A stretch of DNA of 64,000 bases from a phage. The stretch lies in sequence record PZ495249.1; one strand, given 5' to 3'. Positions 18,495 through 59,735 of this stretch are shown here, piece by piece. Under the pieces are notes generated by a model. It did not search any database. It was given only the letters and a program-made list of their open reading frames with translations, and had not been told where the DNA came from. The first letter of the stretch is position 1. Each line of letters begins with the position of its first letter. The translations under genes were made by a program, and so were the position numbers.

Positions 18495-18503
18495 GGAGGG
18501 ACA

Positions 18504-35059: not shown

Positions 35060-35164
35060 AAATAGTTGTTGACTTACCCGAAGAAATACGTAGAATAGAT
35101 TACATCAAAGGGGAAGAGCGGTTCTTCCCCCCAGTAAATGAAAACAGAAAGAAGGAGAACATAC

Positions 35165-37846: not shown

Positions 37847-38410
37847 ATGATCTTCCACATTACTCCCTATCTTTCTGGTGATATCGGCAAAGGCATCAAC
37901 GATACCATCCGTGAACTGCCGGAAGATAGTTGGATTTGCTTGAGGGATATCGACACGATGTTCCTACTACCAGAACAACCGATGTGGCTTGAAACCCTCG
38001 TCCGTTCTAACCCAGAGTATGATGTTATTGGTGCATCATGCAACCGCTTGGGATCTACTTACCAATTGTTCGGTAACGAAATAAGTGACGATTCAGACAT
38101 ACGCAATCACATAGAAATTGCGAAAGCAGCCCGAACAGCCTGGGGCAATAGCATTGAAGATGTTCCTCTGGGAGTACCACTTGCAGGATTCTTCTTATTA
38201 TTCAGGAAGAGTTTGTGGCAAGAAATTCCATTCGAAGAAAGATCTATTCAATTCGATTTAATCTTCTCTAATACTCTACACGCAGCAGGAAAGCGATTAG
38301 GAATCATGCGAGGAATGTATCTGTTCCATACTTATCGTCTTGGAGCAATCGATCCACGTAGAGCCATTTCGCATCTCATTCACTGCCAGGATATGGAGAA
38401 GGTAATATGA
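37847..38410 (+). CDS. hypothetical protein (187 aa), possible sugar-nucleotide transferase
   Basis: track ORF; CAGGAGGGAGAA RBS; heads a three-gene block with two glycosyltransferase-like paralogs. Confidence 0.55.
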   Translation: MIFHITPYLSGDIGKGINDTIRELPEDSWICLRDIDTMFLLPEQPMWLETLVRSNPEYDVIGASCNRLGSTYQLFGNEISDDSDIRNHIEIAKAARTAWGNSIEDVPLGVPLAGFFLLFRKSLWQEIPFEERSIQFDLIFSNTLHAAGKRLGIMRGMYLFHTYRLGAIDPRRAISHLIHCQDMEKVI

Positions 38411-38436
38411 TTGATAATTTAAGGAGGATGTTAAAC

Positions 38437-39405
38437 ATGCTTGTTCATAAGCCCCGCTTATATTGTGATAACAAGTTAGGGAGTGGGTGCGACTATCACC
38501 GAGTGGTGATGCCTTTTGCTGATAATAAATTCAAACCAAAAGAGAATGTATTGGTGTTCAACCGTATTTATTCTCGTGGTGCAGAAGAGGTTCGCCGTCT
38601 GAAAGAGCGTGGTGTTAAAGTGGTAGTAGATTTAGATGACTTCTATGAACTTAACCCTGAGCATTACCTGGCAAGCGTGTTCACAAGTCACACACAGAAC
38701 ATCATTGACATGGTGAAATTAGCAGATATTGTTATCGTCACCACTGAATATCTGGCTTACAAGGTAAGGCCACTGAATAGAAATGTGGTGGTTATCCGTA
38801 ACGCACTGCCTTTCGACACTGGTCAGTTTACCCTGAGTGAAGATAAAGAGTCAGACACTCCGCTGATATGGGCGGGTGGTGCAAGTCACTATCCTGATCT
38901 ATCTCTTGTCTCGAACAGTTTTGATGATGATTTGTTAACAATTGCCGGATATGAAGAGCACAAGTCTGCTCCTGCTGGTAGTCATCAGCAATTGACAACT
39001 GCCGAGTGGAGAAAAGTCAGACGTAAGCTACCAAATGCACAATACAAACCAGCAGTACATCATTTAGGCGAGTATATGTCGGTGTACGATGGTCATGCCG
39101 TAGCTATTGCTCCCTTGGTTGATAACGACTTCAATGCTTGTAAAAGCAACTTGAAGATCCTGGAGGCAGGAGCTAAGGGACTACCTATCATTTGTTCTAA
39201 GGTGTTACCATATTATAATCCGGTGGATGCTAACGTGGTGTTTTATGCTGAATCCCGCGCAGAATGGCACTACGAGGTGGTGAAACTTCTTCGTAATCCA
39301 AACTACGCAGAGGATCGTGGTTTAATGCTTGCAGAACACGTCAGAACACATTACAATCTTGATGATGCAAATGAATTGCGCCGACAAGTGATCGAAAGTT
39401 TATAA
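38437..39405 (+). CDS. putative GT-B-type glycosyltransferase, paralog 1
   Basis: track ORF 38407..39405 trimmed to Met after AAGGAGG; C-terminal KSNLKILEAGAKGLPIICS motif. Confidence 0.6.
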   Translation: MLVHKPRLYCDNKLGSGCDYHRVVMPFADNKFKPKENVLVFNRIYSRGAEEVRRLKERGVKVVVDLDDFYELNPEHYLASVFTSHTQNIIDMVKLADIVIVTTEYLAYKVRPLNRNVVVIRNALPFDTGQFTLSEDKESDTPLIWAGGASHYPDLSLVSNSFDDDLLTIAGYEEHKSAPAGSHQQLTTAEWRKVRRKLPNAQYKPAVHHLGEYMSVYDGHAVAIAPLVDNDFNACKSNLKILEAGAKGLPIICSKVLPYYNPVDANVVFYAESRAEWHYEVVKLLRNPNYAEDRGLMLAEHVRTHYNLDDANELRRQVIESL

Positions 39406-39413
39406 GGAGTTCT

Positions 39414-40358
39414 ATGCCTAACATTGTGCTTGACACACGCGACGGACATAATTATAGTGTCTGTGATTTCCATAGAATTATCCTTCCATACAAACGAGCG
39501 CTCACCATTAACCCACAACACAATATCTTCGTGTTCAATGGTGTGCCTACTCGTGGGAAGTCAGGATTCCTGGCTCTCAAACAACTTGGTTTCAAAATGG
39601 TTATGGATCTTGATGACTCTCTACATATTCCAGAAGGACATATGCTTGAGGACTTGTTTGATACCCGTATCCGTGATGACCTCAAGTGGTTTTTGGAACG
39701 GAGTGATTTGGTAACAACAACTACTCCTGCTCTCCAGAAAGAACTCTCAGAATATAATGACAACGTGCATATTGTGCCGAATGGTTTGCCTTTCGATGAA
39801 TGGCAATTCACCATAACAAAGGATCGTTATTCTAAGAGTCCACTGGTGTGGGCTGGCAGTGAAACCCATAAACATGACTTGGCAATCCTACCGCCCCTCG
39901 GTAAGATGCTAACACTCTGCGGATTCCGTAGAGACAAAGAAGAGCTAAGTAGCTTGCAATGGATATTGATACGAGAAGATATTCAACCTGATTGTATCTA
40001 TGAAGGTGTCCGACCATACGCCACTTACATGGAATCGTATGACGGTCATCAGGTGAGCATTGCTCCACTTGTGGATAATCCTTTTAATAATGCAAAAAGC
40101 AATCTCAAGATTCTTGAGGCTGGAGCCAAAGGCTTACCGCTGATTTGTTCTCCTCGTGAGAATTATTTCACCGAAGAGTTTAAGGATCTGGTTTACTTTG
40201 CCGATTCATTATCCGAATGGAAAGATCTGGTAGAATACTTAGTAGAGTCTCCAGATATTTGTGTTGAAAAGGGAATGGCCTTAGCCAAATATGTACGTGC
40301 TCAATACAGTATTGACGCATTAAACGAGACTCGTAGATTACTTATTGAGAGGTTGTAA
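39414..40358 (+). CDS. putative GT-B-type glycosyltransferase, paralog 2
   Basis: track ORF; AAGGAG RBS; same C-terminal motif (KSNLKILEAGAKGLPLICS) and overall colinearity with paralog 1. Confidence 0.6.
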   Translation: MPNIVLDTRDGHNYSVCDFHRIILPYKRALTINPQHNIFVFNGVPTRGKSGFLALKQLGFKMVMDLDDSLHIPEGHMLEDLFDTRIRDDLKWFLERSDLVTTTTPALQKELSEYNDNVHIVPNGLPFDEWQFTITKDRYSKSPLVWAGSETHKHDLAILPPLGKMLTLCGFRRDKEELSSLQWILIREDIQPDCIYEGVRPYATYMESYDGHQVSIAPLVDNPFNNAKSNLKILEAGAKGLPLICSPRENYFTEEFKDLVYFADSLSEWKDLVEYLVESPDICVEKGMALAKYVRAQYSIDALNETRRLLIERL

Positions 40359-40639: not shown

Positions 40640-42409
40640 GTGACACATGTTGTAAATAAGTACGGCTTTAATATTGATTTGAGTCGAGAAGGTCACACTG
40701 GTTGTCCACGTTGTATGAAGAATGGTAGAGATCGTTCACAGAATAACTTGATGGTATATGGGTTAGATAGTGGCGGTGAGCACAAAGGAGCACACTGCTT
40801 CTCATGCGAATTTACCATTCCGAGTCAAGAATGGTTGGATGAACACGGTGAAGAAATTGAAGAGGAGGATATCTTGGGAAGCGAGTTCAACCCACAAATT
40901 CATGATAAACTGAAAGAACAAACCGGAACAAACCCACGAGGCTATCGTGGAATCCGAGAAGATATTTCAAAACCCCTGGGTGTACGTTATGGTTATGATG
41001 CTGAAACAGGCAATGTGACAGACACATATTATCCAACCACTAAGAGCTATCAGATCGCAGGTTATAAACACCGCATTGATCCGAAAGACTTTACGCAACC
41101 CGTAGGGGAAACAGGTAAAGAATGTGACCTGTTCGGTGAGTTTAAATATCGAAACCACAGTGGTACAATCGTCATCGTAGGTGGTGAGCATGACATGCTT
41201 GCAGCTACACAGATGCTGATGGATCATAACAAAGGTGGTAAATACCCTGTGCCAGCCGTTGTCTCTGGTACATGCGGTGAGAGTTCCCTGCACAAGCAAC
41301 TGCAATCACGCTACAAGTTCCTTGATCAGTTCAAGAAAATCATTCTCTGCATGGACAATGATGATGCTGGTAGAGCAGCAGTAGAGAAGTGTGTTAAGAT
41401 TCTACCTCGCAACAAAGTGTACGTGATGGACTTAACTGAGGTTAAAGATCCTAATCAGGCACTTGAAGAAGGGAAGGTTGATCACTTCATTGACCGATTC
41501 TTTAAAGCGAAGATGTACACCCCTGCTGGTGTATACGCATCAAACGTCCTGTACGAGGCTGCATTGGAATGTTTGGAGGCTAAGGTCATAACCCTACCGC
41601 CATTCATGCGACAGGCTGCTAACATGCTTGGAGGCGGTTTGGTGGAGGAAGAGATTACTGTTATTCTGGCTAAAACCAGTATCGGTAAAACTCTCCTGGT
41701 GAATGAGATCACCAAACACATTATCATGGCGCACCCAGAGCATACTCTTGGCGTTCTTTCCTTGGAGGCAACGTACAAGAAGTATTCTCGTAACTTGCTG
41801 TCATCTTTCCTGCACATTCCTCTGCACCGTAAAACGGCAGAAGAGAAACAGGAGATCCTGAAAGCGAATGAGGAGAGAATTCGTAACTTCTACGAGCACG
41901 AAGACGGCACTCCACGTTTCTACGTGTGTGATGACCGAGGAGCTAACGTAGACGTTATCAAGGAAAAGGTTCTGGAGATGATCATCTACTTCGGAGTGAC
42001 AATCCTTGTTATCGACCCTTATTCTGACTTGCTTTCTGGTATGGATGTTTCCGCGCAGGAAGAACTCGCAACTTGGCTGAAACGTATTATGAAAGAGTAC
42101 GGTATCACTATTATCGTAATCTCTCACGTTAAGAAGTCTTCCAATAACAGCAATGAACACATTGTGGAAGATGATGCAATGGGTAGTAGCTTCCTGGCTA
42201 AAGGTGCTGGTATCACCATCGCACTGGAACGTGACAAACAAGCAGAAGATCCAATGGAACGAAACCGTACATATTGCTACATCCTCAAGAACCGTGAGTT
42301 CTCTGAGACAGGTGCAGCAGGTAGTTTCTTCTATGAAATCAAGACTGCTACCCTTCATGATTACGATCAGTACATGAACAAACTGCCTGTACCCGAAGGT
42401 AGTTATTAA
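40640..42409 (+). CDS. bifunctional DNA primase/helicase (T7 gp4-like), GTG start
   Basis: N-terminal Cys4 zinc ribbon; TOPRIM-like acidic motifs (MDNDDAG); C-terminal P-loop KTSIGKT. Confidence 0.85.
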   Translation: MTHVVNKYGFNIDLSREGHTGCPRCMKNGRDRSQNNLMVYGLDSGGEHKGAHCFSCEFTIPSQEWLDEHGEEIEEEDILGSEFNPQIHDKLKEQTGTNPRGYRGIREDISKPLGVRYGYDAETGNVTDTYYPTTKSYQIAGYKHRIDPKDFTQPVGETGKECDLFGEFKYRNHSGTIVIVGGEHDMLAATQMLMDHNKGGKYPVPAVVSGTCGESSLHKQLQSRYKFLDQFKKIILCMDNDDAGRAAVEKCVKILPRNKVYVMDLTEVKDPNQALEEGKVDHFIDRFFKAKMYTPAGVYASNVLYEAALECLEAKVITLPPFMRQAANMLGGGLVEEEITVILAKTSIGKTLLVNEITKHIIMAHPEHTLGVLSLEATYKKYSRNLLSSFLHIPLHRKTAEEKQEILKANEERIRNFYEHEDGTPRFYVCDDRGANVDVIKEKVLEMIIYFGVTILVIDPYSDLLSGMDVSAQEELATWLKRIMKEYGITIIVISHVKKSSNNSNEHIVEDDAMGSSFLAKGAGITIALERDKQAEDPMERNRTYCYILKNREFSETGAAGSFFYEIKTATLHDYDQYMNKLPVPEGSY

Positions 42410-42412
42410 TAA

Positions 42413-42432
42413 AAGGGGCGCAAGCCCCTTGA
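42413..42432 (+). terminator. hairpin, weak terminator
   Basis: GGGGC-GCAA-GCCCC stem with short T-run; after primase-helicase. Confidence 0.4.
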
Positions 42433-42448
42433 CTTAGAGGAGAGAATT

Positions 42449-42766
42449 ATGATACAGTTAAAAGGTTCCGTAACGACAGTCGAGAGAATGGATGTAGAAG
42501 TTACCCCGCAGGAACTATCCAAACACACAATAAAGAACTTCACCCCTTACGAAATAACCCGCATGGCTTATGCAAGTTGGCTTGCTGGCAAGGGTATGGG
42601 GACAGATGTTCAACTCAAACAAAATTCCCTTGGTGCATATTATTTTCAAGAGTATGAAAATAATGGGAGCCATTATTCAGGTTATTACGAAGTGAGTAAT
42701 GCATACAAGGAAGGTGACGAAGTTATTTGGGAGCAATTCCATCAGCTACTTAATACATTAAAATAA
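42449..42766 (+). CDS. hypothetical protein (105 aa)
   Basis: track ORF between primase-helicase and polymerase. Confidence 0.55.
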   Translation: MIQLKGSVTTVERMDVEVTPQELSKHTIKNFTPYEITRMAYASWLAGKGMGTDVQLKQNSLGAYYFQEYENNGSHYSGYYEVSNAYKEGDEVIWEQFHQLLNTLK

Positions 42767-42778
42767 TTAGGAGGGAAA

Positions 42779-45364
42779 ATGGGAGCATTTACTTTCGACA
42801 TTGAAAGTAACAACTTGCTTAATGATGAGAGTGTGGATTACCTGTCAAGTCCTTATCGACTGAAAGACAGTTTCGAGATGCACTGTATTGTATGCGAGAG
42901 TCATGACACCGGAGAGATTATTGCTTTCCACGATGGAGACAAGTATCACTTCGATGGTCGTCCTTACGTAGAGACTGACGGGAAATACACTTACAGCCTG
43001 TTAGAATACGAACATCAGGATTACACCCATTTTCCAATGAGCGCATTCCGAGACTTCGTTAAAGGCACTGGTGTATTTGCCAACAAACCTCAGTACAAGA
43101 TTACGAAAGTAGTTGGTCATAACATTATCAACTTTGACTTGTTAGCCATTAAACTCTACTTTAAAATGAATTACAGCGTGAAATACAATACTTGGGATAA
43201 TCAGGATGTAGAAATCTGTGATACCATGATCCTGAGTAAAGTGCTGAACCCTGACCGTTTCGGTGGTCATAGCCTGGCGGAATTATCCAGCAAGGCAGGT
43301 GGTGATGTTAAGCTTGACTTCCGTAAAGATATTCCGGTTGAAGATCGATTCAAAACGTTTGCAGCAGACATGCTCTATTACTGTATTTACGATAACAAAT
43401 CGAACACCGCCGTATATAAATATCTGATGGAAGAATGGGGAGACTACGATAAATGGGCGGAACCATTTATTCTTGAACAACGTATTGCTGATATTATCAC
43501 TCGTCAGGAACACCGTGGCTTCGCTTTCAATATGAAACAAGCCGAAGAGAATATAAAAGATCTTGATTCTAAGATGGAAGCGTGTAGACTTGAGGCTGAA
43601 CCTATTCTTCCTCCGAAACCTGCAACGAAAGGTTATCTGAAAGACTTCATTCCGCCTAAACTCCAGTTTAAGAAGAATGGTGATCCAACGAGTAACATTA
43701 CGAAGTTTGCAGCTAAGCATGGTGGTGAACTGGTTGAACGTGAAGATGGATGGTGGTTGATCGCCTTGGATAAGGAAATGAAACTTCCTATCTCCAGTGA
43801 AGAGCCAATCTGTGAACCTACTGTTCCGGCTACACTGAACGACACGACACACATCAAGAACTGGCTGGTAGGATTAGGCTGGAGTCCTTCTGAGTACAAA
43901 GATAAAGACATTACGTTGAAGTCTGGTACTAAGATTAAAAAGGACGAGGCGCAGATGGAGAAAGCGATTCGCGATTACGTGGATCAAACTTTAGCATCAA
44001 ACTTCTGTCAAGATCGTTGTGACCACCTTGAATGTACGCCTGAAACTCTTGAGTGGAAGCTGCGTGACCGTATTGCTAAGGCAAAAGGTAAAGGTGTGAA
44101 GGTATTGACTAACCCATCATTCACCAAGGGGCAGGAGAAAGAGATTTGTCCTAACTTGGCTGAACTGGGTGAGAAGTTCCCGTATGCTACCCAGATCGTG
44201 GAATACCTGACGTACAAACACCGTCGAAACTCTATTCTCGGTGGTGGTGCAGATTGGGAAGATGATGAAGAGGATCAGGAATACAACAAAGGTTATCTTG
44301 CAGCAGTAAGGGCAGACGGGCGTATTCCAACGCCAGCGGCAACGTGTGACGCTGCTACTTCTCGTATGAAACACCGTCTTGTTGCTAACATTCCTCGTGT
44401 AACCTCTCTATACGGTTTCCAGATGCGTAACATGTTTGGTGTAGAGGTTCCGGCATACTTCCAGATTGGTTATGACTTTGACTCACTTGAGGCGAAGATT
44501 GAATCACATTACTGCTGGAGATATGAAGCAGAGCCGCATGAATATTGTAACGCTCTTCTGTTAGAAAAGCCGCACGATGTTCACTCAATGATGGCACGAC
44601 GCATTACAGAAACTATCGGACGTAAGTTTGAACGTGCTCCGGCTAAATCTGTTAAGTATGGTATCACATACGGCGCTCAGGCTGCGAAGGTGGCTAAGAC
44701 AATCGGTAGTGATATGCACACAGGCCAGATGGTTTATGATGCATTCTGGGAAGCTGCAAAGCCTCTCGCATTACTGAAAGAACGTCTGCATGACTTCTGG
44801 GTTAAAACAGGTAAGAAATACATTCTCGGTATCGACGGACGTAAAGTGCCTACCCGTTCTGCTCACGCTATCCTGAACTCACTTTTCCAGAGTGGCGGGG
44901 TAATCTGTGCGAAACGTGCAATGGTGATTTACGACGACCTGATCGAAGAAGAAGGGCTGGCAGTTGACTTCTTTGTTGACGATTGGAAAAACAAATCCTT
45001 CGTGCAGCAAATGATCGCTTACCACGATGAAGCACAACTTGAGGTTACTCGTGACCTGGTTGAGTTCAAATGGTTCTCCAAAGAATCTCTGGGCTGGATT
45101 CAAGTTGAGGATGAGAAAGAGCAGGAACGAATCGACAAAGAATGTATGGCTAAAGTAAATGCGTGGAAAGCTGAGGAAGAAACTCGTACTGGTAAGATCT
45201 GGGCTAACGTACACGAATCTCCGAAAGGTGGTTGGTTTACTGGCTACAGTCGTGCAGGTGAACTGGCATCCATCGCAGTTAAGAAAGCAGGTGAATTCTA
45301 TGGCCTGAACGTAGAACTGACAGCAGGTTATGACTTAGGTAATTCCTGGGCGTCCTGTCACTGA
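42779..45364 (+). CDS. family A DNA polymerase with 3-prime to 5-prime exonuclease domain
   Basis: Exo motif FDIESNNL; polymerase motif B-like KSVKYGITYGAQ; HDEAQ motif C; 861 aa. Confidence 0.85.
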   Translation: MGAFTFDIESNNLLNDESVDYLSSPYRLKDSFEMHCIVCESHDTGEIIAFHDGDKYHFDGRPYVETDGKYTYSLLEYEHQDYTHFPMSAFRDFVKGTGVFANKPQYKITKVVGHNIINFDLLAIKLYFKMNYSVKYNTWDNQDVEICDTMILSKVLNPDRFGGHSLAELSSKAGGDVKLDFRKDIPVEDRFKTFAADMLYYCIYDNKSNTAVYKYLMEEWGDYDKWAEPFILEQRIADIITRQEHRGFAFNMKQAEENIKDLDSKMEACRLEAEPILPPKPATKGYLKDFIPPKLQFKKNGDPTSNITKFAAKHGGELVEREDGWWLIALDKEMKLPISSEEPICEPTVPATLNDTTHIKNWLVGLGWSPSEYKDKDITLKSGTKIKKDEAQMEKAIRDYVDQTLASNFCQDRCDHLECTPETLEWKLRDRIAKAKGKGVKVLTNPSFTKGQEKEICPNLAELGEKFPYATQIVEYLTYKHRRNSILGGGADWEDDEEDQEYNKGYLAAVRADGRIPTPAATCDAATSRMKHRLVANIPRVTSLYGFQMRNMFGVEVPAYFQIGYDFDSLEAKIESHYCWRYEAEPHEYCNALLLEKPHDVHSMMARRITETIGRKFERAPAKSVKYGITYGAQAAKVAKTIGSDMHTGQMVYDAFWEAAKPLALLKERLHDFWVKTGKKYILGIDGRKVPTRSAHAILNSLFQSGGVICAKRAMVIYDDLIEEEGLAVDFFVDDWKNKSFVQQMIAYHDEAQLEVTRDLVEFKWFSKESLGWIQVEDEKEQERIDKECMAKVNAWKAEEETRTGKIWANVHESPKGGWFTGYSRAGELASIAVKKAGEFYGLNVELTAGYDLGNSWASCH

Positions 45365-45368
45365 TAAA

Positions 45369-45390
45369 CAGGGGCGAAAGCCCCTTATTA
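45369..45390 (+). terminator. rho-independent terminator
   Basis: GGGGC-GAAA-GCCCC stem plus TTATTA; after DNA polymerase. Confidence 0.5.
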
Positions 45391-45402
45391 GAGGAGAAAA
45401 CA

Positions 45403-45633
45403 ATGAAATTAGTATTCCAAACAGACGACATTTTCATGTTCACAAAGGATATGGGAACATATACAGGTGGACAGATTATCATCCTGGGAGATAAAAACGG
45501 ATCATCATTTAATATCTTAGGTGACATTCGTAAGGATGGGGAAGAAAAACCTGTGACTGTAACAGGTTCAGAGAGTTGGTTAGAAACTTTATACCAAACT
45601 GGTGTTATCAAATTTATTGGGGAGAAAAAATGA
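45403..45633 (+). CDS. small protein (76 aa), tandem paralog A
   Basis: track ORF; GAGGAGAAAA RBS; C-terminal G.(I/V)K(F/L)(I/L)GE.K shared with next gene. Confidence 0.5.
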   Translation: MKLVFQTDDIFMFTKDMGTYTGGQIIILGDKNGSSFNILGDIRKDGEEKPVTVTGSESWLETLYQTGVIKFIGEKK

Positions 45634-45872
45634 AACTTGTAGAAACAGTAATCACTACCGTAGAATTTGAAGTAGGGGATGTAGTTATGTTCCTGGATGA
45701 AGTTGGCTTTTATAAATTGGGAGATGTAATTGTTCTCCGTAAAGATTCCGAGCCAGAGAGATTCAAAGCTGAGGGTGCAGGGTTTATTGCTGGAGAAGCT
45801 AATGTAACACAGAAATGGCTGCATGATCTTCTGAAAGAAGGTCGAGTGAAACTGTTAGGGGAGTTAAAATAA
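45630..45872 (+). CDS. small protein (80 aa), tandem paralog B
   Basis: track ORF 45576..45872 trimmed to Met after GGGGAGAAAAA. Confidence 0.5.
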   Translation: MKLVETVITTVEFEVGDVVMFLDEVGFYKLGDVIVLRKDSEPERFKAEGAGFIAGEANVTQKWLHDLLKEGRVKLLGELK

Positions 45873-46510
45873 TGGCATTATTCATGACCGTAGATAATCA
45901 AAAGCAAGCAGCATCAGAACTTCTTTCTAAATTGAAGATGGTAGATCCGTTTGCTATGATCGCAGGTGGTGCTCCTCGTGACTGGTACTTTAACACCGTT
46001 GCCAAGGACTTGGACGTATATCTCCGTCTTCCTAACCACAATACCATTGGATTGGTAACTTCCTTGGCTGCAATGGTGGGGATTAAAGATTTCTACCCTA
46101 TCGACAAGATTAAGGAATCAACCTACGCAGAATTACCTAACCTGAAATGGGTGTTTGAAGGTCGTTACAACGGTGTTCAAGTTAATCTGATGGTTATGGA
46201 GAAGGGTGTACGCGAAGAAATTATCAAAGATTTCGACGTGGCTATCTGTCGGGCATGGTTTGATGGGATCGAGTGTCATTACAATGAAGAATTTCAATTC
46301 TGTGTGAAGACTCGTGTTTGCCTGGTTCATGAGAACTACACTGGTAAAGAAGCCCACCTGCGTAAGATGGCTAAACGTTTCCCACAATTCATGTTCTATA
46401 AGAAAGTGGAGATCCCAGAAGAACCGGACGTGAGCTTTGACGCACCTCCAAGCCACGCTAAGGCTGCACCGCTTCCTCGTAAGCTGCCTGATTTCTGTGA
46501 TGAAATTTAA
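45872..46510 (+). CDS. Pol-beta-superfamily nucleotidyltransferase (CCA-adding-enzyme head-domain-like)
   Basis: IAGGAPRDWYF...DLDVYL matches the GG..RD...DxD nucleotidyltransferase signature. Confidence 0.6.
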   Translation: MALFMTVDNQKQAASELLSKLKMVDPFAMIAGGAPRDWYFNTVAKDLDVYLRLPNHNTIGLVTSLAAMVGIKDFYPIDKIKESTYAELPNLKWVFEGRYNGVQVNLMVMEKGVREEIIKDFDVAICRAWFDGIECHYNEEFQFCVKTRVCLVHENYTGKEAHLRKMAKRFPQFMFYKKVEIPEEPDVSFDAPPSHAKAAPLPRKLPDFCDEI

Positions 46511-46561
46511 TAAATAAGGGGTTGACAAGCCCCTCCATTTTATGTTAAGATGAGGACTTGA

Positions 46562-46960
46562 ATGACAGATTCACGCGCTAAAATAACAGTCGAGACTTCT
46601 TACAGTCGTGAGATGAACAGTCTCGTTCTCGTTGAGAAAGAAGCACTTCCGCAAGACAATTCGTTCTTCATACAACTCCTGAGTATCACTGGCGGTGCAG
46701 TACGTTTAAGTGTACGTATCGACGATTCTCAGTTCTCAGAACAAACTGTCACCCGTAAAGAATTTACCCTGTTGCAAGACACACTCCGAAATATCTTAGA
46801 TACTCCAGGCAAAGCCGGAATCATTAATCTTGGTGGAAACAAGATTCAACTTCTGCATTTTGAAAATGGTGAAATCGGTGTGGGTATTGGGAAAGGTAAA
46901 TATCTGTTAGAACCAACAGATGCAATTCTATTAAGAGAATTCTGTGTCAAAGTAATGTAA
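46562..46960 (+). CDS. hypothetical protein (132 aa)
   Basis: track ORF. Confidence 0.55.
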   Translation: MTDSRAKITVETSYSREMNSLVLVEKEALPQDNSFFIQLLSITGGAVRLSVRIDDSQFSEQTVTRKEFTLLQDTLRNILDTPGKAGIINLGGNKIQLLHFENGEIGVGIGKGKYLLEPTDAILLREFCVKVM

Positions 46961-46977
46961 TCCAAAGAGGAGAATAT

Positions 46978-47886
46978 ATGCCAGTAATTAATTCCGAAAT
47001 CGACCGCAAGACTAAACAAGAAGCATTCTGGGCTGAGGGTATTGTAGAATACGTTAAGCTGGATAAGTTTGCAGAGATGAAAGTCTCTTACATTAAAGTC
47101 GCTGGTCAGCCGGATAAGAAAATTGAGTCCACTCACAAAGCTTCCATTCTTCTGAAAGAGAAAGGTGCTGGTAAGGATGATCCAGGTGTTTGGATCGGTC
47201 TGGGTGATGTTAAGCTGCATCCAGAGCATGAAAATCTGCAAGTCAAGAAAGACGACCAGTGGGTGACTATCGAACGTGGTGTTGAAATTACACTGGACGT
47301 TAAGCCTAATGAATGGCAGGGTAAAACTTATTACCAATCATCCAAAGGTAAGATCTTCGTTGTATCTACCGAAGGTGTTCAAGCTGCTGCTCCGAAAGCA
47401 GGAAAAGGTGGTGATAGCACTCCAGCTAAACAACCGTTCAAGAAACGCGATACCGTAGGTATTGAAACTGGTCACGCTGTTAACGGTGCTCTTGAGCTAA
47501 TCCGTGGTGGTGTGAAAGGTGATGCCTTTGAACTCGCAGGTGTAGTACAGTCTGCCACTGTAACGCTGAAAGCAGAAGTTGCTAAGGCTCGTGGTGTGGA
47601 TATCACTGATTACGATCTGGGTGCTTCTGTCGGTCATGCTATCCTGAATGCTTGCCGTGATCACTCTCGCGATGATGTGACCATTGACGAACTGATTGAA
47701 GCTGCTCGCGATGTGCTGGCGCTATCTGATAAGGTGGCTGCTGCAATCCGTGGTGATGCTCCTGTTGCTGAATCCAAACCAGCCGCAGAGAAGCCAAAGA
47801 CAACTCGTAAGCCAAAAGAGGCGGTAAAAGCTCCTGAGCCAGAGCCAGAACCTCCAATGGACTTCGACGACGATATTCCTTTCTAA
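46978..47886 (+). CDS. ssDNA-binding-protein-like replisome protein with E. coli SSB-type C-terminal tip
   Basis: C-terminus ...PEPEPEPPMDFDDDIPF identical to the E. coli SSB tail tip; adjacent to polymerase and primase-helicase. Confidence 0.65.
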   Translation: MPVINSEIDRKTKQEAFWAEGIVEYVKLDKFAEMKVSYIKVAGQPDKKIESTHKASILLKEKGAGKDDPGVWIGLGDVKLHPEHENLQVKKDDQWVTIERGVEITLDVKPNEWQGKTYYQSSKGKIFVVSTEGVQAAAPKAGKGGDSTPAKQPFKKRDTVGIETGHAVNGALELIRGGVKGDAFELAGVVQSATVTLKAEVAKARGVDITDYDLGASVGHAILNACRDHSRDDVTIDELIEAARDVLALSDKVAAAIRGDAPVAESKPAAEKPKTTRKPKEAVKAPEPEPEPPMDFDDDIPF

Positions 47887-47890
47887 GGAT

Positions 47891-47928
47891 AAAAATAAAG
47901 GGAGCCTCTTTCGAGGTTCCCTTTTTTA
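47891..47928. terminator. bidirectional terminator at convergence of middle and late blocks
   Basis: 9-bp stem flanked by A-run on one side and T6 on the other; between convergent genes ending at 47886 and 47929. Confidence 0.6.
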
Positions 47929-49080
47929 TTACACAGCATTTACGGATAAGTAGGAGCTATCAGAAGCAACCACCGTACCTTGATATGTGGCAGTACATCC
48001 TATCCTGCACCCGCCATCGCCTACTCCAGTAATAAGACCATTACTATCAACCGTAGCCACTGTAGGATCTGTTGTGGTATAAGTGATAACCATATCTGAT
48101 AACGACGCTGCACCATCTGGTGTTATCGTTGCCACAAGTTGTTGTGTAGTCCCTACACTCATTGCACTCAAGCTTTCAGTGTACACGCTTAATGTAGATG
48201 CATAGCCTCCAGAACTATCAGAGAGCGTTGTTCCAACATTGTTTTTAGCTGTTAAACTTGCATCGAAACCACCTTCACTAACAAACGACATTAGCCCATT
48301 AGTATCAATGGTCATAATAGAAGTATTACTTGAAGCATAAACTTTATCTGTTATTGGTGCTCCGGTTGGAGTAACAGAGTATGTTAATTGTTTCGTGCCT
48401 CCCACTATTGCAATACCGATGGAATCTGTGGTAATGCTTGTGGCTGTCGGTACTATACTGGTCATGATAGTTAGATCGTCTATTTTACCACGCAGCATTA
48501 GCGCGTTATCTGTAGTCCCAGCAATACAGAAGGGATTAGCAGTATTTCCCCCGAAACCCTTAGAAATAGTTAAAACAGATCCGAGAAAGACATTATCTTT
48601 CTTCACATACAAGCTACTCCCTGACTTCGTTATTGTCAGTCGAAACCAAGTATTAACTGGTAGTGCAGCAGTCCCAAAACGAAATCTTTGGACTTCCCCT
48701 GTCGTGCTGTAGCCATCTATACTAACGGATGCGAATACTTGATACGTATTGTTTAAGGTTATCCACCAACTACCAGAACCAGCATTGTTATTCAAGTTAC
48801 CGCATAGAATAGCTTGAGAGGTGTTATCTAAATATAACCATGTGTCTATAAGTAGGTCGGTAGTAGTCCCAACCACAAGACCAGTAGGTAGGCCACCAGA
48901 CGGGTTTGTAACGGTTATTTTACTATTAGATGTTCCACTAAATATGAGCGAACCTTTCCCTGATGCCGAATCTGTAGACTCGGCAACACCTGCACCCAAG
49001 GTAACTACACCGAATTCTTGCAAGCGTTTAACGATGTAGTTTACGTAAGGCTTTCCTCCGGCGAGTAACACTTCAAGCAT
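47929..49080 (-). CDS. tail fibre/adhesin-like protein with Ig-like (Big_2-type) C-terminal domain
   Basis: TTDPTVATVDSNGLITGVGDGG Ig-like motif; Thr/Ser/Gly-rich; first gene of late leftward block. Confidence 0.65.
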   Translation of the reverse strand: MLEVLLAGGKPYVNYIVKRLQEFGVVTLGAGVAESTDSASGKGSLIFSGTSNSKITVTNPSGGLPTGLVVGTTTDLLIDTWLYLDNTSQAILCGNLNNNAGSGSWWITLNNTYQVFASVSIDGYSTTGEVQRFRFGTAALPVNTWFRLTITKSGSSLYVKKDNVFLGSVLTISKGFGGNTANPFCIAGTTDNALMLRGKIDDLTIMTSIVPTATSITTDSIGIAIVGGTKQLTYSVTPTGAPITDKVYASSNTSIMTIDTNGLMSFVSEGGFDASLTAKNNVGTTLSDSSGGYASTLSVYTESLSAMSVGTTQQLVATITPDGAASLSDMVITYTTTDPTVATVDSNGLITGVGDGGCRIGCTATYQGTVVASDSSYLSVNAV

Positions 49081-49089
49081 AAGTTCACC

Positions 49090-49758
49090 TTAACTAATAA
49101 ATGTATTAGGTACAGCAGGTAGATTCTGCTTACTTGTCGCCTCGTATGTTGCTTTCAAGACAGTCAGATAATTTTGTACCACAACACCCCATTGCTTCAT
49201 AGCTTCATCAATTAGGCCAAGGGTATCTGTTTTATTTAGTGGATTTGACACACCTTCTTTCAGATTGATCAGATAAGTATCGGTGGCAGTTCCGCTGGTA
49301 GCAGACGTTTTGATAATATTTAATAGTGCCATACCATCTGCTGTCATTTGCAGGGTGTAATTTTGACCTGCGTATGTAACAGTGATACCTGTGAAACCAT
49401 CTTGAATAAAGATGTTATACAAGTTAGCTGCTTGACCTTGTTTTCTTTGTGCAAGATCTGCTGCGGCTTCTTGTTCATCAAAATCACGTACAACATAAGT
49501 ACGGTAGAATTTACCATCTGCCCCTTGCACTGGAGTGACTTCTGTAATAACATCACCATCAGGAATAGGTGAATCGAAAATCACAGCATAACCAAACTCT
49601 TCAAGAATGTAATCTCGGCAAGGGTATGGATAACTGATGTTAGTGTTAGAAGCACGAATAGCAGGGAAATAAATAGGCCAAGAAAGATCAGCCATATTAA
49701 TTAACGGGGTGTAATCATAAACCAAAGTAAAATCTTCGATTGAAGTAGTTTCTTCCAT
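49090..49758 (-). CDS. hypothetical structural-module protein (222 aa)
   Basis: track ORF; GGAGGA RBS; between two fibre genes. Confidence 0.55.
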   Translation of the reverse strand: MEETTSIEDFTLVYDYTPLINMADLSWPIYFPAIRASNTNISYPYPCRDYILEEFGYAVIFDSPIPDGDVITEVTPVQGADGKFYRTYVVRDFDEQEAAADLAQRKQGQAANLYNIFIQDGFTGITVTYAGQNYTLQMTADGMALLNIIKTSATSGTATDTYLINLKEGVSNPLNKTDTLGLIDEAMKQWGVVVQNYLTVLKATYEATSKQNLPAVPNTFIS

Positions 49759-49770
49759 CGTATTCCTCCG

Positions 49771-49799
49771 AATAAAAGAAGAGGGGATTTCTCCCCTCT
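49771..49799 (-). terminator. rho-independent terminator
   Basis: AGAGGGGA-TTTC-TCCCCTCT hairpin plus U-run on minus strand; after collagen-like fibre gene. Confidence 0.55.
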
Positions 49800-49803
49800 G
49801 TTA

Positions 49804-52296
49804 TTAAGCGTAACCACCTGGTTTGAAACCAAGTAGGCTCGTTCCGTCCCATAACAGACTAACTGTGCAACGTCCAGTGGTGTAGGTTGGAGCCGTTCCA
49901 TCTGTCCAGTTGATTGTGTTAGTCCATGACACTGAACCTGTATTACCAGTGAAGATAACAACAATGGTCATCGCTCTACCCGCTGGTAGGTTAGTAATCG
50001 TTAGGGTTTTGCTTGATGCCAGAGAGACAGTAAACACTTGTCCCTGACTTGCGTCAAGTGTAGCAGTTGCAGTAGATACAGCCAAATCGTAACGATTTAG
50101 ACGAGTCCACACACCACCGCTTTGCATGTAATATCCATCTGTGGTAGGGGCTTTCGCCAGTGTTTCTACCCAAGCTGTATCTTTACGTGCATAAACTTTC
50201 CCATCAGCAGGAGCATCTGAGATTCCTGGAGAAGGAATCGTAAACGCTGTCCAACCACCGTCTTTACGAGCGTACATAGAGCCATCGCTTGGTGCGTCAT
50301 AGACGTTACCACCACCCATGTAACCCATAGAAGCCCAGTTAAGGCTGCTGGTTTTCTGGAAGAACTGTAGTGTTAAGGAGTTTAGGAAGTAGTCGCCTAC
50401 ACGTCCGTCAGCAGGTCCAGGGTTACGCTGCAATACGATCCACAGTGTACCTTGATCACCCTTATCACCTTTCACACCCTGCGCACCTTGCGGTCCCGCT
50501 GGTCCCTGGATATTACCTGCGTTCTGGTATGATCCATTTCCTGAGCTATCTACGTTCCAAACCCAGAAGTTGCCATCAATCAGATAACCTTCACCGATGG
50601 TTCCAGTTGCAGGAAGATCTGCGGTTGAATCAAGTTCACCAAGGATCTTAACCCCTGGTCCCATAGGACCTGGAATACCCTGAATACCTTGTTCCCCTTG
50701 AATACCCTGCTCACCCTGGATACCTTGTGGACCGCTGTTCACGCCCATATCGATCCAAGCTGTACCGCTCCAGATGTATGAACGCTGGTGAATGTAGTAC
50801 ATGTCACCTTGAATGTTACCAGTGGTAGGTAGGTCTGAGGTGTTACTTAGTTCACCCTTCGCATGAATAGAATTACCAGTGGCTCCTGTTGCACCTTGTT
50901 CCCCTTGGATGCCACGAAGAACACCCATATCCACCCAACCTTCACTCTTGTCAAAGTTTAGCGTATAGATGTAAAGATTGCCAGTGTCTTCTAAGCTATA
51001 TGCGCTACCGTATGGAGGCTTAACTGGAAGATCGCTTGCAGATGGTACTTGACCTTTAGCGGTGATTGAGATACCTTGTAGAACACCAGCGTTGAGCCAT
51101 TCACCAGTTCCTGCAACAGGATCTATTGCTACCCAAATATAGATGTATTTATCAGGACCGACTAAGTAAGCTGTACCATAATTAACATCTTCCGGCGGAG
51201 GTAATTGACTTTCGTTATCTACTTCACCTACGATGTTAAGACCTGTACCAGGAACACCTTGGATACCAGGTACACCTTGCTCGCCTTGGATACCTTGTTC
51301 ACCTCTATCTCCTTTATCTCCCTTCAGAGATGCAAGGAAATCGGCTTCGGAACCAAAGTTACCAGCATTAATCCAGATTTGGTAAGCGGAGTCCCCGTCT
51401 TTACCATCTGCACCGTTTGTACCAGCATTACCTTTGTCTCCCTTATCCCCTTTGTCGCCTTTCGGACCGACAATAGCTCCCATGTCCACCCACGCAGTAC
51501 CGTTAGATACGTAGAGGTAGGTTCCATAGCTCCATGCCTGAGATACGTTAGCTGGAGATGGTAGTGGCAGTAGTCCAGGATCAGAGATAGCACCCTGATA
51601 ATCAAATCCGTTAGCGTTTACACCAGGATCACCTTTCTGTCCTTGTGGACTTGGATCACCTTTATCGCCCTTGATGGATTGAACGAAGTCAAGCTCTGTA
51701 CCTGTGTTACCAACGTCTAACCAACTTTGATACGCAGATTTACCTTCCGGTCCCACTTGACCAACAGGCGACCATTGGATACTATCCCATACCCACATTT
51801 GCTCTTGAACAATATATGCATCACCAGGAGAGTTTCCTGTCATAGGTAGGTCGGATACAGAATCAAAGCTTCCTTTGATTACAAGACCACTACCTGTATC
51901 TCCTTTCAGAGAATCAAGCCATTCTTGTTCAGTACCGACGAAGCCATTATCTACCGCAATATCATATGCAGATTTACCAGCTTCTGGAATTTGTGTAGCG
52001 AGGTCGTCGATCTCTTGTTGAATAGTTGTGAACTTGGCATTGATAATAGCAATATCGTCAGCTTTACCAACGTTAACCCAAGTGTTAACACCGATGCCAC
52101 CTGTAGAACCAGGGGTAGAGTTTGCTGGAACGACTTTCGGTAAAGCGCCCTTCCATTGATAGTAGTTACCGTCTGTATCGTACAGTAATACTTCTCTTGC
52201 ATTTGTTAATGTAAAGCCAGCTACAAAGCTTCTACGCTTTCTGTAGGTAGCTTCGACCATATCAGCAATAGCGCTATTAGGTCTTGTTAGAATCAT
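49804..52296 (-). CDS. tail fibre protein with collagen-like Gly-X-Y repeats
   Basis: several Gly-X-Y runs (e.g. GPQGIQGEQGIQGEQGIQGIPGPMGPG, GPKGDKGDKGDKGNAGTNGADGKDG); 830 aa; GAGGAG RBS. Confidence 0.8.
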   Translation of the reverse strand: MILTRPNSAIADMVEATYRKRRSFVAGFTLTNAREVLLYDTDGNYYQWKGALPKVVPANSTPGSTGGIGVNTWVNVGKADDIAIINAKFTTIQQEIDDLATQIPEAGKSAYDIAVDNGFVGTEQEWLDSLKGDTGSGLVIKGSFDSVSDLPMTGNSPGDAYIVQEQMWVWDSIQWSPVGQVGPEGKSAYQSWLDVGNTGTELDFVQSIKGDKGDPSPQGQKGDPGVNANGFDYQGAISDPGLLPLPSPANVSQAWSYGTYLYVSNGTAWVDMGAIVGPKGDKGDKGDKGNAGTNGADGKDGDSAYQIWINAGNFGSEADFLASLKGDKGDRGEQGIQGEQGVPGIQGVPGTGLNIVGEVDNESQLPPPEDVNYGTAYLVGPDKYIYIWVAIDPVAGTGEWLNAGVLQGISITAKGQVPSASDLPVKPPYGSAYSLEDTGNLYIYTLNFDKSEGWVDMGVLRGIQGEQGATGATGNSIHAKGELSNTSDLPTTGNIQGDMYYIHQRSYIWSGTAWIDMGVNSGPQGIQGEQGIQGEQGIQGIPGPMGPGVKILGELDSTADLPATGTIGEGYLIDGNFWVWNVDSSGNGSYQNAGNIQGPAGPQGAQGVKGDKGDQGTLWIVLQRNPGPADGRVGDYFLNSLTLQFFQKTSSLNWASMGYMGGGNVYDAPSDGSMYARKDGGWTAFTIPSPGISDAPADGKVYARKDTAWVETLAKAPTTDGYYMQSGGVWTRLNRYDLAVSTATATLDASQGQVFTVSLASSKTLTITNLPAGRAMTIVVIFTGNTGSVSWTNTINWTDGTAPTYTTGRCTVSLLWDGTSLLGFKPGGYA

Positions 52297-52329
52297 TTAT
52301 TACTCCTCGTTCGATTATTAAACGGTAGC

Positions 52330-52360
52330 ATAGAAATTAAAGAGGGGATTTCTCCCCTCT
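52330..52360 (-). terminator. rho-independent terminator (same hairpin as 49780..49799)
   Basis: identical AGAGGGGATTTCTCCCCTCT hairpin; after tailspike gene. Confidence 0.55.
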
Positions 52361-52362
52361 AT

Positions 52363-55300
52363 TTACGTCGTTGGTACATCGTTTGGAGTTGGACGAATTA
52401 CCGCAGTGTTACCCACTGAAACATTACTTGCGTCGTTAGGAACAGTTTTAATTCTAATTCCAGCCGCAGTAGCTGTTTGAATAGGATCGGCAATATCAAT
52501 CTTGACAGGGTTTGTCCACAGGTCATTATCTTGATATGGTGCGCGGGTAATTACAGTATCGAGATCTGCACCACCTGCACCTGCCCCAGGAATACGGATA
52601 CGTGTTCCGGCTGATAATGGGTAATGGTATAACCAAGAAGCGTTTGTCGCCGTTCCATTTGGTACTAAGTTCTGAGCCAGTGATTTATCGCCAACAGTTG
52701 TTGCACGAATTCCGAATGCTGCAATATCTGGGATATATGCACCACTTGTCGTAACAAGGAAGAACGTGTTATCTGCTTTAACGATCATGTCACCTTTATC
52801 AAACTCTTTCCCAGTTGGGAAGTGCAGACCATCAATGTTTCTGCTTGGGTTAGCTTCCAGGTAATAAACCTTTCCGGTAGAACCAAGAAGAGCACCAATT
52901 CCGCCAGCGATGTTGGTATACATGTTGGCTTCAACGTTACAGTTGACACGGTGAATGTCAGAGTAACGGCAACGGCTCCATGCTGGACGACCACTAACCA
53001 TTGTGTTACCATTTGGGTAGCAGTTTACGTTAACCATTTCAAGAACAGATTTCTCGCGACGGAAGAATCCATCGTAGAATGTACCTGGTCCTGACTCTGG
53101 TTGACCAACACACTCGAAGCTGTTACAAGTGATGTTTGACATTGACAGCCAAGAAGCAATACCGAATAGCTGTAGTGCAGCACAACGGATGTTCTCGAAG
53201 CTCACACGGTTTTCAAATCCTGGTCCTGCTGAAACACCTGCGAACACACGCCCTGTGCGGGTATGAACGTTCTTAACAGAGTAGTTGAAGCAAGGGTTTG
53301 AAGGTCTACCTTGTGGTGGCTGAACTGGTTGTCCATCCGGTCCCAATACTGGGTTAGTACCCCACTCCAAGTAAATCAGACGGATATTACTTGCTGGAGT
53401 GTTAGCATCAGTTTTAGGTTCACCGTAAACACCGTCAATCGTGAAGTCTTTGCTTCCGTACATTACCACTGCACCTGTTGCTAAACCAGTACCTGTCGAA
53501 ACAGTCTGATCAGGATCACCGTGGATGTTCTCAATAGTAATGTTACGTCCAACTTCTACGTGAACAATTTGACGACAACGTTTTGCAAACACGTTGCGGA
53601 TTGTGATATTCTTACAGTATTGACTGTCTGGGATATCGTAACCATATGGTCCCTGTCCTGCCACACCGATACCGATACCCCAGTTGGAGTTAGCGATAGG
53701 AGCGTTTGTACCGTCAATGTTAGACAGATAGATGTTCTCGATCACACAACCATCATCATAGTGTTTACTGATAACGTTAAGTTCGATAGCATCACCTTGC
53801 ATATCCATGAAGGTAAGGTTGCGGAATACACCACGAGTTACAGGCTCACCAGTACCTTGTTGAAGAATACCGTATAAACCGTTTTTGAAGGTACAGTTGT
53901 CAATCTCGAATGTACCCGTGATTGGGTTGCCCTGGAATACCAGGCTACCAACTTGTCCTGCGCGTGGCGCACCGTCCCACAGGCAGTCGTAGATACGAAC
54001 TGCACCACCCCAATACATAACGCGAGCGTTACGGAAGGTTACACCTTCTAAGGTAGCATTTTGTAAACGATAGTCACGTTGACCACGGAATACACCACCT
54101 TTCAGCGTGATACCAGTGATATCAAAGCTGCTTGTAGTGAAAGTCATGTCACACCCGTAGGCGTTCAACACTTTCCCTTTGCTGTTAGCAGTTGCTGTCA
54201 GAGCCGCCTGGAAAGCTGCTTCTGGTGTGGTGTATTTTGAATTGTTCGCAAACTCAGACAAGTAAACAACGTCGAACAGATCGTTGAATACACCACCGTG
54301 TGGTGTTAGAAGCGCTTCTGTGTTCGTCAGAACCCAAGTGGTAGGGCTAACCCCTCCGCTGCTTTCTAAAGTGTCTGTAGCTGAAATTGTCTTAGGTAGA
54401 GTACCAGCCCAACGATAACGACCTGAACCCATACCGATAGTTTGGTTCTTGATAGTTAAAGTAGCTGCGTTACCGAAGCTCGTTGGCAGGTGAACAAATT
54501 GTCCACGTTCAACAGCCAGTGCAGCAAGGTCAACTGTACCACCTGAGTAAGTTAACACACCTGTTGCAGAAAGGCTACCGAAGTTACCGCTAATACCTAC
54601 TGGTAGAGTGTACGCTGCTTGGGTTGTAGGATCGTAAAGAGCCTTAATCCCTGTTAGAGACTGCCCTGTTTGTGCTAAACCAACTTCTGCATCTTTCAGA
54701 CCGAACTTACGTGCCACAATCTGTGTTGGAACTTTACTCATCTGAGTCGTCAGATCAGAAGTAGTAGTTTCCAGTGCAGTAACACGGTTTGCCAGGTTAG
54801 GATCGTTATCTGCGGCAGCTACAATTTTACCAATGTACGCAAACAGTTTGTTAGGTAGTCCAGTAGCAGGATCTAAACCAAGAGGTTCAGAAAGAATGAT
54901 CTTGCTGTCCTGAATAGTATACGCATCACCAACAATCTGCACAACCCCGTTGATAGTTACGATAGCACTATCAAACACGTATGGAGGGCTGATAACTTTC
55001 TCATAACCTGTTGCGCCAGTGTACAACCAAGGGTATACTTCGTTAGCAAGCTGTTCAGTTTTCATAGCCCAGAGAACCCAGTTATTATCTCCTACTGGAG
55101 TCCCTTGCATAGGGATTGGGTTAGCGGTTGTCGCTGTTGGAGCGTAGTAATACCCACTCAGAATCCCATTCTGGAAGAAACGGAGTTGGTTAAATACTGT
55201 TTCATTAGTACCTGCCGCCCAAGCGACAGGGCTTTTGAAATAGAAGTTATCAAGCAACGCTTTACGCAGCGTAGGAATTAAACCTGTTTCAGTTTCAACC

Positions 55301-59487: not shown

Positions 59488-59735
59488 TAATCTTCCTCCT
59501 TCTTATCAGGGGCAGGTGTTCTGCCCCAACGTAGATCGATCAGATTCTTCATTAAGCGTGAAGGTGTGATCATGAAAACGAAAGCCCAACCCATCCACTC
59601 AGGGATCTCTTTTTCGATCCCTAAGAAGATGAACATTCCTGTCATGGTAAGCATTCCGACTGCGTTCCACACTTTGGTAGAACTAACTTTGCTGTTTGGA
59701 TAAGTACAAAACATTCCGATTAAAAATTTCTTCAT
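59487..59735 (-). CDS. small membrane-like protein (82 aa)
   Basis: track ORF; ATGA overlap; hydrophobic segments. Confidence 0.45.
   Translation of the reverse strand: MKKFLIGMFCTYPNSKVSSTKVWNAVGMLTMTGMFIFLGIEKEIPEWMGWAFVFMITPSRLMKNLIDLRWGRTPAPDKKEED

Follow-up and report, generated by a model that had tools for sequence, protein, structure and literature searches.

A conserved T7-type replication block facing a P2-ordered baseplate operon in a phi92-like virulent myovirus

Phage rV5 carries a PolA together with a helicase of the gp4d/DnaB type, the homologues of which include primase/helicases of podoviruses (PMC3606486), and the replication machinery of BME3, a Justusliebigvirus, comprises a helicase/primase, a UvrD/Rep helicase, a polymerase and an SSB, a protein that binds single-stranded DNA (PMC12210895). 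The annotation of another Justusliebigvirus, Paula (LR865361), which carries cross-references to phi92, places gp198 (UvrD-like) first, followed by gp166–162, gp161 ("primase/helicase (T7-like)"), gp159 (polymerase) and gp158–156, and then a convergent set, gp151–138, holding fibres, a chaperone, a "T4 gp6 ortholog", a "gp25 ortholog" and the central spike. Here, a stretch of 64,000 nucleotides of phage DNA (record PZ495249.1; hereafter the window) was analyzed with respect to positions 40640–47886, which encode a fused primase-helicase, a family A DNA polymerase and an SSB-like protein. This interval is very probably the conserved DNA-replication block of a virulent phi92-like myovirus in its usual place, its pairing with a P2-ordered baseplate being ancestral to the phi92/rV5-like assemblage and not a recent chimera. 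The replication block is transcribed rightwards and meets a leftward tail-fibre/baseplate operon, and a UvrD-type helicase gene lies 18 kb upstream.

Seventy open reading frames (ORFs) of the window were compared by tblastn with the entire Paula genome, 100 kb of Klebsiella phage KP2025 and segments of Citrobacter phage Tr1 and of phi1_175008; 54 of the 70 matched Paula, in collinear order, and the other three references were collinear with the window as well. Identities to Paula, KP2025 and Tr1, respectively, were 88, 72 and 73% for the primase-helicase (full length in the case of Paula gp161) and 88, 85 and 84% for the polymerase, as compared to 87, 66 and 79% for the Baseplate J protein and 89, 72 and 85% for the P2 gpI-like protein. 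The similarity rankings of replisome and baseplate across the three references are thus congruent. In a wider tblastn search over 50,697 phage records, the primase-helicase matched 3012 records and J matched 894, and both searches returned the same lineages in identical order, namely Justusliebigvirus (∼87–88%), Phapecoctavirus (71–81%), rV5-like (∼31–33%), Rheinheimera Barba-like and Pakpunavirus-like phages. The Rheinheimera Barba-like records numbered 115 in the primase-helicase search and 115 in the J search. Gene order is kept even in a 140-kb metagenomic contig (L011) with just 41% identity in the SSB-like protein; this contig encodes, in sequence, a glycosyltransferase, primase-helicase, PolA, nucleotidyltransferase, a small gene, the SSB-like protein, convergent fibres, Wedge-1 and J. 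Synteny, congruent ranking, shared lineages and the published descriptions argue that the combination of this replisome with this baseplate is ancestral and standard. The original prediction had inferred a mosaic genome from the mix of modules; that inference fails by the refuting outcome which the prediction itself had named, because every module groups with a single established subfamily, Stephanstirmvirinae, where the combination is standard.

Megablast queries with the interval 40640–47886 and with each third of the window matched only large myoviruses, comprising Stephanstirmvirinae and neighbours, at no more than ∼83% identity and ∼68% coverage, consistent with a phi92-like virulent myovirus of ∼150 kb. 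The closest DNA relatives were all Stephanstirmvirinae (75–83% identity). Matches to the 40.6–47.9 kb interval came from Tr1 and Justusliebigvirus and those to the tail region from Phapecoctavirus-type phages, while the best matches to 1–45 kb were the Klebsiella phages KP2025, phi1_175008, KP13-26 and FKP3 (80–83% identity, 40–62% coverage), which constitute the proposed genus "Sichuanvirus" (PMC11726925). The product of coverage and identity reached at most ∼51% to any GenBank phage in any third of the window (megablast, 64 of ∼150 kb), as compared to a genus criterion of at least 70% intergenomic similarity (PMC11726925), which hints at a possible separate genus. The closest sequence found was an SRA-derived contig of 153.7 kb (L012), with 89% DNA identity across the replication block and primase-helicase and PolA proteins 96.8% and 96.2% identical to those of the window. 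The window phage is a moderately divergent new relative within the known subfamily Stephanstirmvirinae (phi92-like), and seems to bridge that subfamily's E. coli and Klebsiella branches.

With Paula the window shares a collinear run from phi92 gp166 to gp138 over 37.8–64 kb, the gp198-type UvrD helicase, and a convergent replication/tail layout with a terminator between the two arms; beyond the values given above, the SSB-like protein is 75% identical. It differs from Justusliebigvirus in that DNA identity is only ∼77–79%, across 26–60% of the query, and from Paula in early genes that are far more divergent or absent, an unrelated gene in the gp160 slot, and differing distal receptor-binding parts. 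The Klebsiella "Sichuanvirus" phages have the same gene order, NadR/PnuC genes and a 105-residue ORF in common with the window. In contrast, their core proteins are more distant than those of Justusliebigvirus, gp140/gp141-type fibre genes are lacking, and in KP2025 the polymerase gene is split, with an HNH endonuclease flanking it.

The primase-helicase gene (40640–42409, plus strand, GTG start; 589 residues), a homologue of phi92 gp161, encodes a protein of the T7 gp4 type. An N-terminal Cys4 zinc ribbon (CPRC 22–25, CFSC 53–56), a Toprim_2 domain (Pfam, residues 179–275) with the TOPRIM motifs GGEHD and DNDDAG, and a DnaB_C domain (residues 331–553), together with the P-loop AKTSIGKT, lie in a single polypeptide, as had been predicted for a fused enzyme at this position. 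The protein belongs to phrog_239, "DNA primase/helicase" (1e-165), and T7 gp4 is its sole sequence match in the PDB (8e-27), aligned over gp4 residues 122–542 (E 3e-26). The polymerase gene (42779–45364, plus strand), a phi92 gp159 homologue, encodes 861 residues without interruption and corresponds to a family A enzyme with an N-terminal 3′-5′ exonuclease, of the T7 gp5 type. Its assignment, also anticipated, is substantiated by PF00476, phrog_17 and the exonuclease family phrog_403 (residues 111–218), by T7 gp5 as the sole PDB sequence match (2e-19), and by intact motifs A (DFDSLE, 566–571), B (RAPAKSVKYGITYG, 619–632), C (HDE, 749–751) and Exo I (FDIES, residues 6–10). The part aligned to gp5 spans residues 500–731, the thumb not aligning, and identity to relatives is 84–88%. 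No 5′-3′ nuclease domain was found among the Pfam matches. The likeness to T7 lies in the fusion of zinc ribbon, TOPRIM and helicase in one chain, as in gp4, and in a family A polymerase with a 3′-5′ exonuclease but without a 5′ nuclease domain, as in gp5. In contrast, the primase-helicase is only ∼27% identical to gp4, the polymerase is 157 residues longer than its T7 counterpart, and the T7 virion is that of a podovirus whereas the present phage is a large myovirus.

The separate helicase gene (21192–23006, plus strand; 604 residues), a phi92 gp198 homologue, encodes a UvrD/Rep-type superfamily 1 helicase, 84% identical to Paula gp198. The original reading as UvrD-like holds, with N- and C-terminal UvrD domains (PF00580, PF13361, PF13245, PF13538), Walker A AKSGSGKT (31–38), a DExQ motif (DEFQ, 224–227) and membership in phrog_1967 (4e-158). 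Its best solved-structure match is the human F-box DNA helicase FBH1 (1.4e-30) as compared to 1e-6 for bacterial UvrD. The KP2025 homologue has 960 residues and aligned to only 57% of the query, and therefore probably contains a large insertion. PADLOC matches of the window helicase to GajB models were judged to reflect generic UvrD-family similarity.

On the minus strand, the baseplate genes follow the order V-W-J-I-H-G of P2, namely spike, gp25/W-like protein, J, I-like protein, fibre and chaperone, in agreement with the predicted P2-like arrangement, and the baseplate proteins match chains of the solved phi92 structure (PDB 21vq). The first gene (63670–64000), cut by the window end, encodes the C-terminal part of a central membrane-piercing spike of the phi92 gp138 / P2 gpV class. 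Matches to PDB entries 3pqh, 3pqi and 21vq_t (E ∼1e-36, the first two being phi92 gp138 structures), a PF21930 beta-helical trimerization domain (1e-25) and a His-rich apex, HNHTH, aligned to HTHTH of phi92 gp138, bear out the gpV-like spike that had been proposed. The structure of the gp138 spike was reportedly solved together with that of P2 gpV. The gp25/W-like baseplate wedge protein (63011–63667; phrog_4233, phrog_120), homologous to phi92 gp139, is 74% identical to Paula gp139, annotated as a "potential T4 baseplate gp25 ortholog". The Baseplate J / T4 gp6-like wedge protein, a phi92 gp145 homologue (58000–59487), is identified by PF04865 and by PDB chain 21vq_h, Phi92_gp145 (3.5e-287), and the P2 gpI-like / Wedge-1 protein, a phi92 gp146 homologue (57368–57997), by phrog_4056 and chain 21vq_D, Phi92_gp146 (5.5e-123). 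A tail fibre or connector homologous to phi92 gp147 (56303–57358; phrog_4465, 6e-78; 60% to Paula) and, in the phi92 gp148 slot, a tail fibre assembly chaperone (55758–56327; PF02413 Caudo_TAP, 2e-16; phrog_136) complete the series. The likeness to P2 is one of gene order and of the Baseplate_J and Caudo_TAP domains. Unlike in P2, three extra genes stand between W and J, encoding 157, 944 and 82 residues, and at least four more receptor-binding genes follow the chaperone, corresponding to the multivalent adsorption apparatus of phi92.

Although this evidence speaks for long-standing association of replisome and baseplate, the left part of the window has different closest relatives. A recombinant within the subfamily, joining a "Sichuanvirus"-like early arm to a Justusliebigvirus-like replication and structural arm at a junction of ∼37–39.4 kb, is a slightly better than even proposition. 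Genes between 485 and 37094 are 57–97% identical to KP2025 as compared to 29–85%, or absence, in Paula, individual early genes giving 97 versus 74, 94 versus 35, 93 versus no match, 94 versus 69, 95 versus 80 and 91 versus 72%. To the right of 39414, Paula becomes the closer relative, first for a glycosyltransferase (84 versus 37%), then for the primase-helicase, J and the I-like protein with the values given above. Megablast likewise put Klebsiella phages at the top for 1–45 kb, and elsewhere the first places went to phages of E. coli or Citrobacter. Recombination between lineages is suggested because the closest relative switches near 37.1–39.4 kb, inside a trio of consecutive glycosyltransferase genes (37847–40358; phrog_14179, then two of phrog_7162) that lies directly upstream of the replication block and whose third member is the one just cited. 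Weighing against this reading, the comparison draws on four references, closer relatives such as L012 may show the arrangement to be old and lineage-wide, and fast-evolving early genes could yield uneven similarity, though not by themselves a reversed ranking. Recombination of this kind is compatible with a conserved, ancestral replication block, and no other true mosaicism was observed.

The third protein of the block shows a less typical pattern. The gene at 46978–47886 (plus strand), a phi92 gp156 homologue, encodes a 302-residue SSB-like protein consisting of an OB-fold domain (residues 1–135), a basic linker, a four-helix domain (∼158–257), a disordered linker and a C-terminal tip. Over its final 12 residues, EPPMDFDDDIPF, the protein agrees with the C terminus of E. 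coli SSB at 12 of 12 positions, and the tail has a net charge of −5 and a terminal Phe. DDDIPF corresponds to the conserved SSB-Ct, by which SSB makes essential contacts with its protein partners (PMC5872125). The exact protein of the window is not on record in public assemblies. In the AlphaFold model (mean pLDDT 78), the four-helix domain is very confident and the tail disordered, and the nearest fold matches of the OB domain, although weak, are SSB, PriB, RPA32 and STN1, all single-stranded DNA binders. A database search returned 90 homologous sequences, of which none carries an informative name or a Pfam domain; a tail motif of the D-F-D-D-D-I-P-F type is kept in 86, and P301 and F302 are invariant in an alignment of 49 reaching down to ∼30% identity. 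The corresponding PHROG is labeled "unknown function". Within the family, conservation is highest in the four-helix domain rather than in the OB domain; the helical domain contains many invariant Gly, His and Ala residues and a duplicated motif, GHA(V/I)(N/L)(G/N)A, present as GHAVNGA (165–171) and GHAILNA (219–225). Its fold matches were generic helical ones only (designed repeats, sigma-factor domains, DdrC), and the domain is therefore left without a functional assignment. In ∼14 of the 90 homologues (P0037, P0041, P0053 and P0086 among them), 15–17 extra residues extend beyond DDDIPF, with a consensus like APIGLQY..H...... Such residues after IPF would bury the terminal Phe carboxylate that SSB-tip binding pockets normally recognize, and may mask or regulate the tip in this subset.

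An acidic-tailed SSB-like protein had been counted as part of the T7-like module, and this description stands for the OB fold and the acidic tail but not for membership in the gp2.5 family. Homology to T7 gp2.5 was rejected (hhalign probability 0.14%). The protein gave no Pfam match at E ≤ 0.01, the OB domain of E. coli SSB (PF00436 family) gave no tblastn match, and canonical SSB homology beyond the tail was likewise rejected, as the NCBIfam model PRK09010 aligns with nothing but the tail (20 bits versus a cutoff of 260). No canonical SSB or gp2.5 homologue was found in the window, the whole Paula genome or 100 kb of KP2025. Judged by sequence comparison, the T7-like label thus fits two of the three proteins, with the SSB-like protein falling into neither the gp2.5 nor the bacterial SSB family. 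The protein resembles gp2.5 in combining an OB fold with an acidic tail ending in Phe, a likeness of working and not of membership, and differs by its extra four-helix domain and by a host SSB tip in place of the gp2.5 tail. With E. coli SSB it shares an OB domain, a disordered linker and the acidic tip of 12 identical residues. The SSB assignment is not new, since the gp156 homologues of KP2025 and phi1_175008 are already annotated as single-stranded DNA-binding proteins in their GenBank records; the SSB family of the phi92 gp156 type is nevertheless uncharacterized. We tentatively propose, as a possibility below even odds, that gp156-type proteins form an uncharacterized phage SSB family defined by an OB fold, a conserved four-helix domain and the exact host tip. 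A T7-type phage replisome would in that case connect to the host SSB interaction network and recruit SSB-binding proteins of the host or draw them away, with no private gp2.5-style tail.

The 12-residue identity to the host tip and a four-helix domain with duplicated motif better conserved than the OB domain are also what might be expected of a protein that does not serve as a replicative SSB but, as a decoy or adaptor, presents the tip of host SSB and so sequesters or reroutes the proteins that bind it (nucleases, helicases, repair or defense factors). The OB domain is moreover not basic, and its structural matches are weak. This alternative is nonetheless considered unlikely, as every relative has the protein in its replication block next to the polymerase, the complete relative genome (Paula) yielded no further SSB candidate, and the nearest OB-fold matches are specifically single-stranded DNA binders. 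The decoy and SSB roles are not mutually exclusive. Chimeras of gp2.5 bearing the E. coli SSB tail have reportedly supported T7 growth, and a host-type tail could for that reason serve phage and host partners alike.

A cross-family mosaic, in which a P2-like myovirus would recently have received a T7-like (Autographiviridae-type) replication cassette, is highly improbable: T7 proteins are the sole solved-structure sequence matches of both enzymes and the primase-helicase family is spread across podoviruses and myoviruses in the 3012 records, but the primase-helicase is 24–29% identical to T7 and podoviruses as compared to 71–88% within Stephanstirmvirinae and 31–40% to other large myoviruses, replisome and baseplate stand at the same relative distances to three references, synteny holds down to the 41% SSB identity noted above, no compositional break occurs over the block (GC 0.42–0.45, steady skew), and the combination has already been published.

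For a conserved replication block ancestral to these phages, a working model may be drawn by analogy with T7. The primase-helicase would form a ring that unwinds the fork in the 5′-3′ direction and lays RNA primers on the lagging strand, while the proofreading PolA would copy both strands. The OB-fold protein would coat lagging-strand single-stranded DNA, and its acidic, Phe-terminated tail would contact partner proteins. These partners probably include host SSB-binding proteins, besides or instead of phage enzymes, because the tail copies the host SSB tip. The UvrD-type helicase may act as an accessory motor for repair, recombination or template clearing.

The remaining genes of the replication block, all on the plus strand, are small, and several occupy variable positions. 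Between primase-helicase and polymerase, a 105-residue ORF (42449–42766) without Pfam or PHROG match is 59–66% identical to proteins of KP2025 and phi1_175008 and 74% to one of L012; it is absent from Paula, where the slot holds the unrelated gp160. The polymerase gene is followed by two tandem paralogues, of 76 residues (45403–45633) and of 80 residues from an ATG at 45630 (45630–45872; weak phrog_31972 match), 27% identical to each other (E 3e-8). This 0.5-kb slot (45365–45871) contains an HNH homing endonuclease (phrog_953) in L012 and KP2025 and is a gap of just 138 nucleotides in Paula; the region 3′ of the polymerase gene is thus a hot spot of variation. A 181-residue ORF on the minus strand (45279–45824) overlaps plus-strand genes, has no family match and was dismissed as spurious. 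Next follows a phi92 gp158 homologue (45872–46510; 212 residues; phrog_10174, 5e-28; phrog_1614), a Pol-beta-type nucleotidyltransferase-like protein with the motifs GGAPRD (32–37) and DLD (46–48), whose homologues give weak PolyA_pol head matches. For its homologues in L011 (38% identical) and L012 (89%), precomputed Pfam marks give PF26128 "Gad2" (anti-Gabija). The Gad2 identity was not reproduced with local Pfam for the window protein and three homologues, and PADLOC gave no match, such that Gad2 is a hint only. A conserved 132-residue protein homologous to phi92 gp157 (46562–46960; phrog_16560, 1e-57) keeps its position in Paula, KP2025, Tr1, L011 and L012. The 42 nucleotides that separate the SSB-like gene from the convergent tail gene contain a strong bidirectional intrinsic terminator (47897–47924), with a 12-bp stem containing six G-C pairs, an A-run before and a T-run after; a terminator is annotated at the equivalent position in Paula. 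A promoter scan returned 14 sites as compared to 14.6 in shuffled sequence, and since this is no excess, no promoter is claimed.

Further minus-strand genes of the tail block extend the adsorption apparatus. Between W and J lie two extra fibre/tail genes of 157 and 944 residues, homologous to phi92 gp140 and gp141 (59732–63039; phrog_9017, phrog_2871). They are 73% and 80% identical to their Paula counterparts and absent from KP2025, and thus represent an inserted receptor-binding module; the 944-residue protein has no Pfam or NCBIfam match. The small hydrophobic protein of 82 residues (59487–59735) is 83% identical to Paula gp144, its phi92-type homologue. Beyond the chaperone, a distal receptor-binding set (47929–55748) comprises a lipoprotein (55407–55748), a colanidase-type tailspike (52363–55407), a collagen-repeat fibre (49804–52296) and a LamG/Ig-like protein (47929–49080), with N-terminal parts conserved and distal parts divergent as compared to relatives. 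Among these genes is a 222-residue ORF (49090–49758) with phrog_4998 (unknown function) as its only match. The fibre chaperone is 23% identical to that of Paula and 48% to that of Tr1, where flanking baseplate genes are 85–89% identical, and the pattern looks like exchange of a cassette of fibre tip and chaperone.

The window as a whole has ∼44% G+C over its 64 kb and contains no tRNA genes. Its genes fall into three strand blocks: the minus strand as far as ∼11 kb, the plus strand over 11.5–47.9 kb and the minus strand again from 47.9 kb to the end. In the early arm, a NadR-like NAD-biosynthesis gene (15652–16722) and a PnuC-like nicotinamide riboside transporter gene (17300–17998) are 81% and 88% identical to those of Klebsiella phages, and neither has a match in Paula. 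Genes at 29840–30820, 32514–33617 and 35138–35767 are homologues of phi92 gp182, gp178 and gp172, annotated in relatives as a TerC-like membrane protein, a toxic-anion-resistance protein and a TerD-like stress protein, and represent a tellurite-resistance-like gene set within a virulent phage. For four ORFs (3632–3934, 8742–9341, 18138–18881 and the 222-residue ORF at 49090–49758), tblastn found no counterpart in the four references. Several records labeled as Campylobacter phages, among them MG065658 ("Campylobacter phage C7") and MG065644 ("A147"), show DNA matches to this enterobacterial-type phage group and contain rV5-like baseplate genes, and their host labels look doubtful.

A T7-type replisome in large contractile-tailed phages is thus long established and widespread, occurring in phi92-like, rV5-like, PAK_P1-like and Rheinheimera Barba-like phages, and genome scans should not mark its pairing with such a baseplate as chimeric. 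The apparent position of the phage between the E. coli and Klebsiella branches lends it some interest for taxonomy and phage therapy. Only the SSB-like protein takes the finding past routine annotation: its conserved, unnamed family with a host-identical tail could reveal how a virulent phage that encodes a polymerase and a helicase itself still draws on replication and repair factors of the host.

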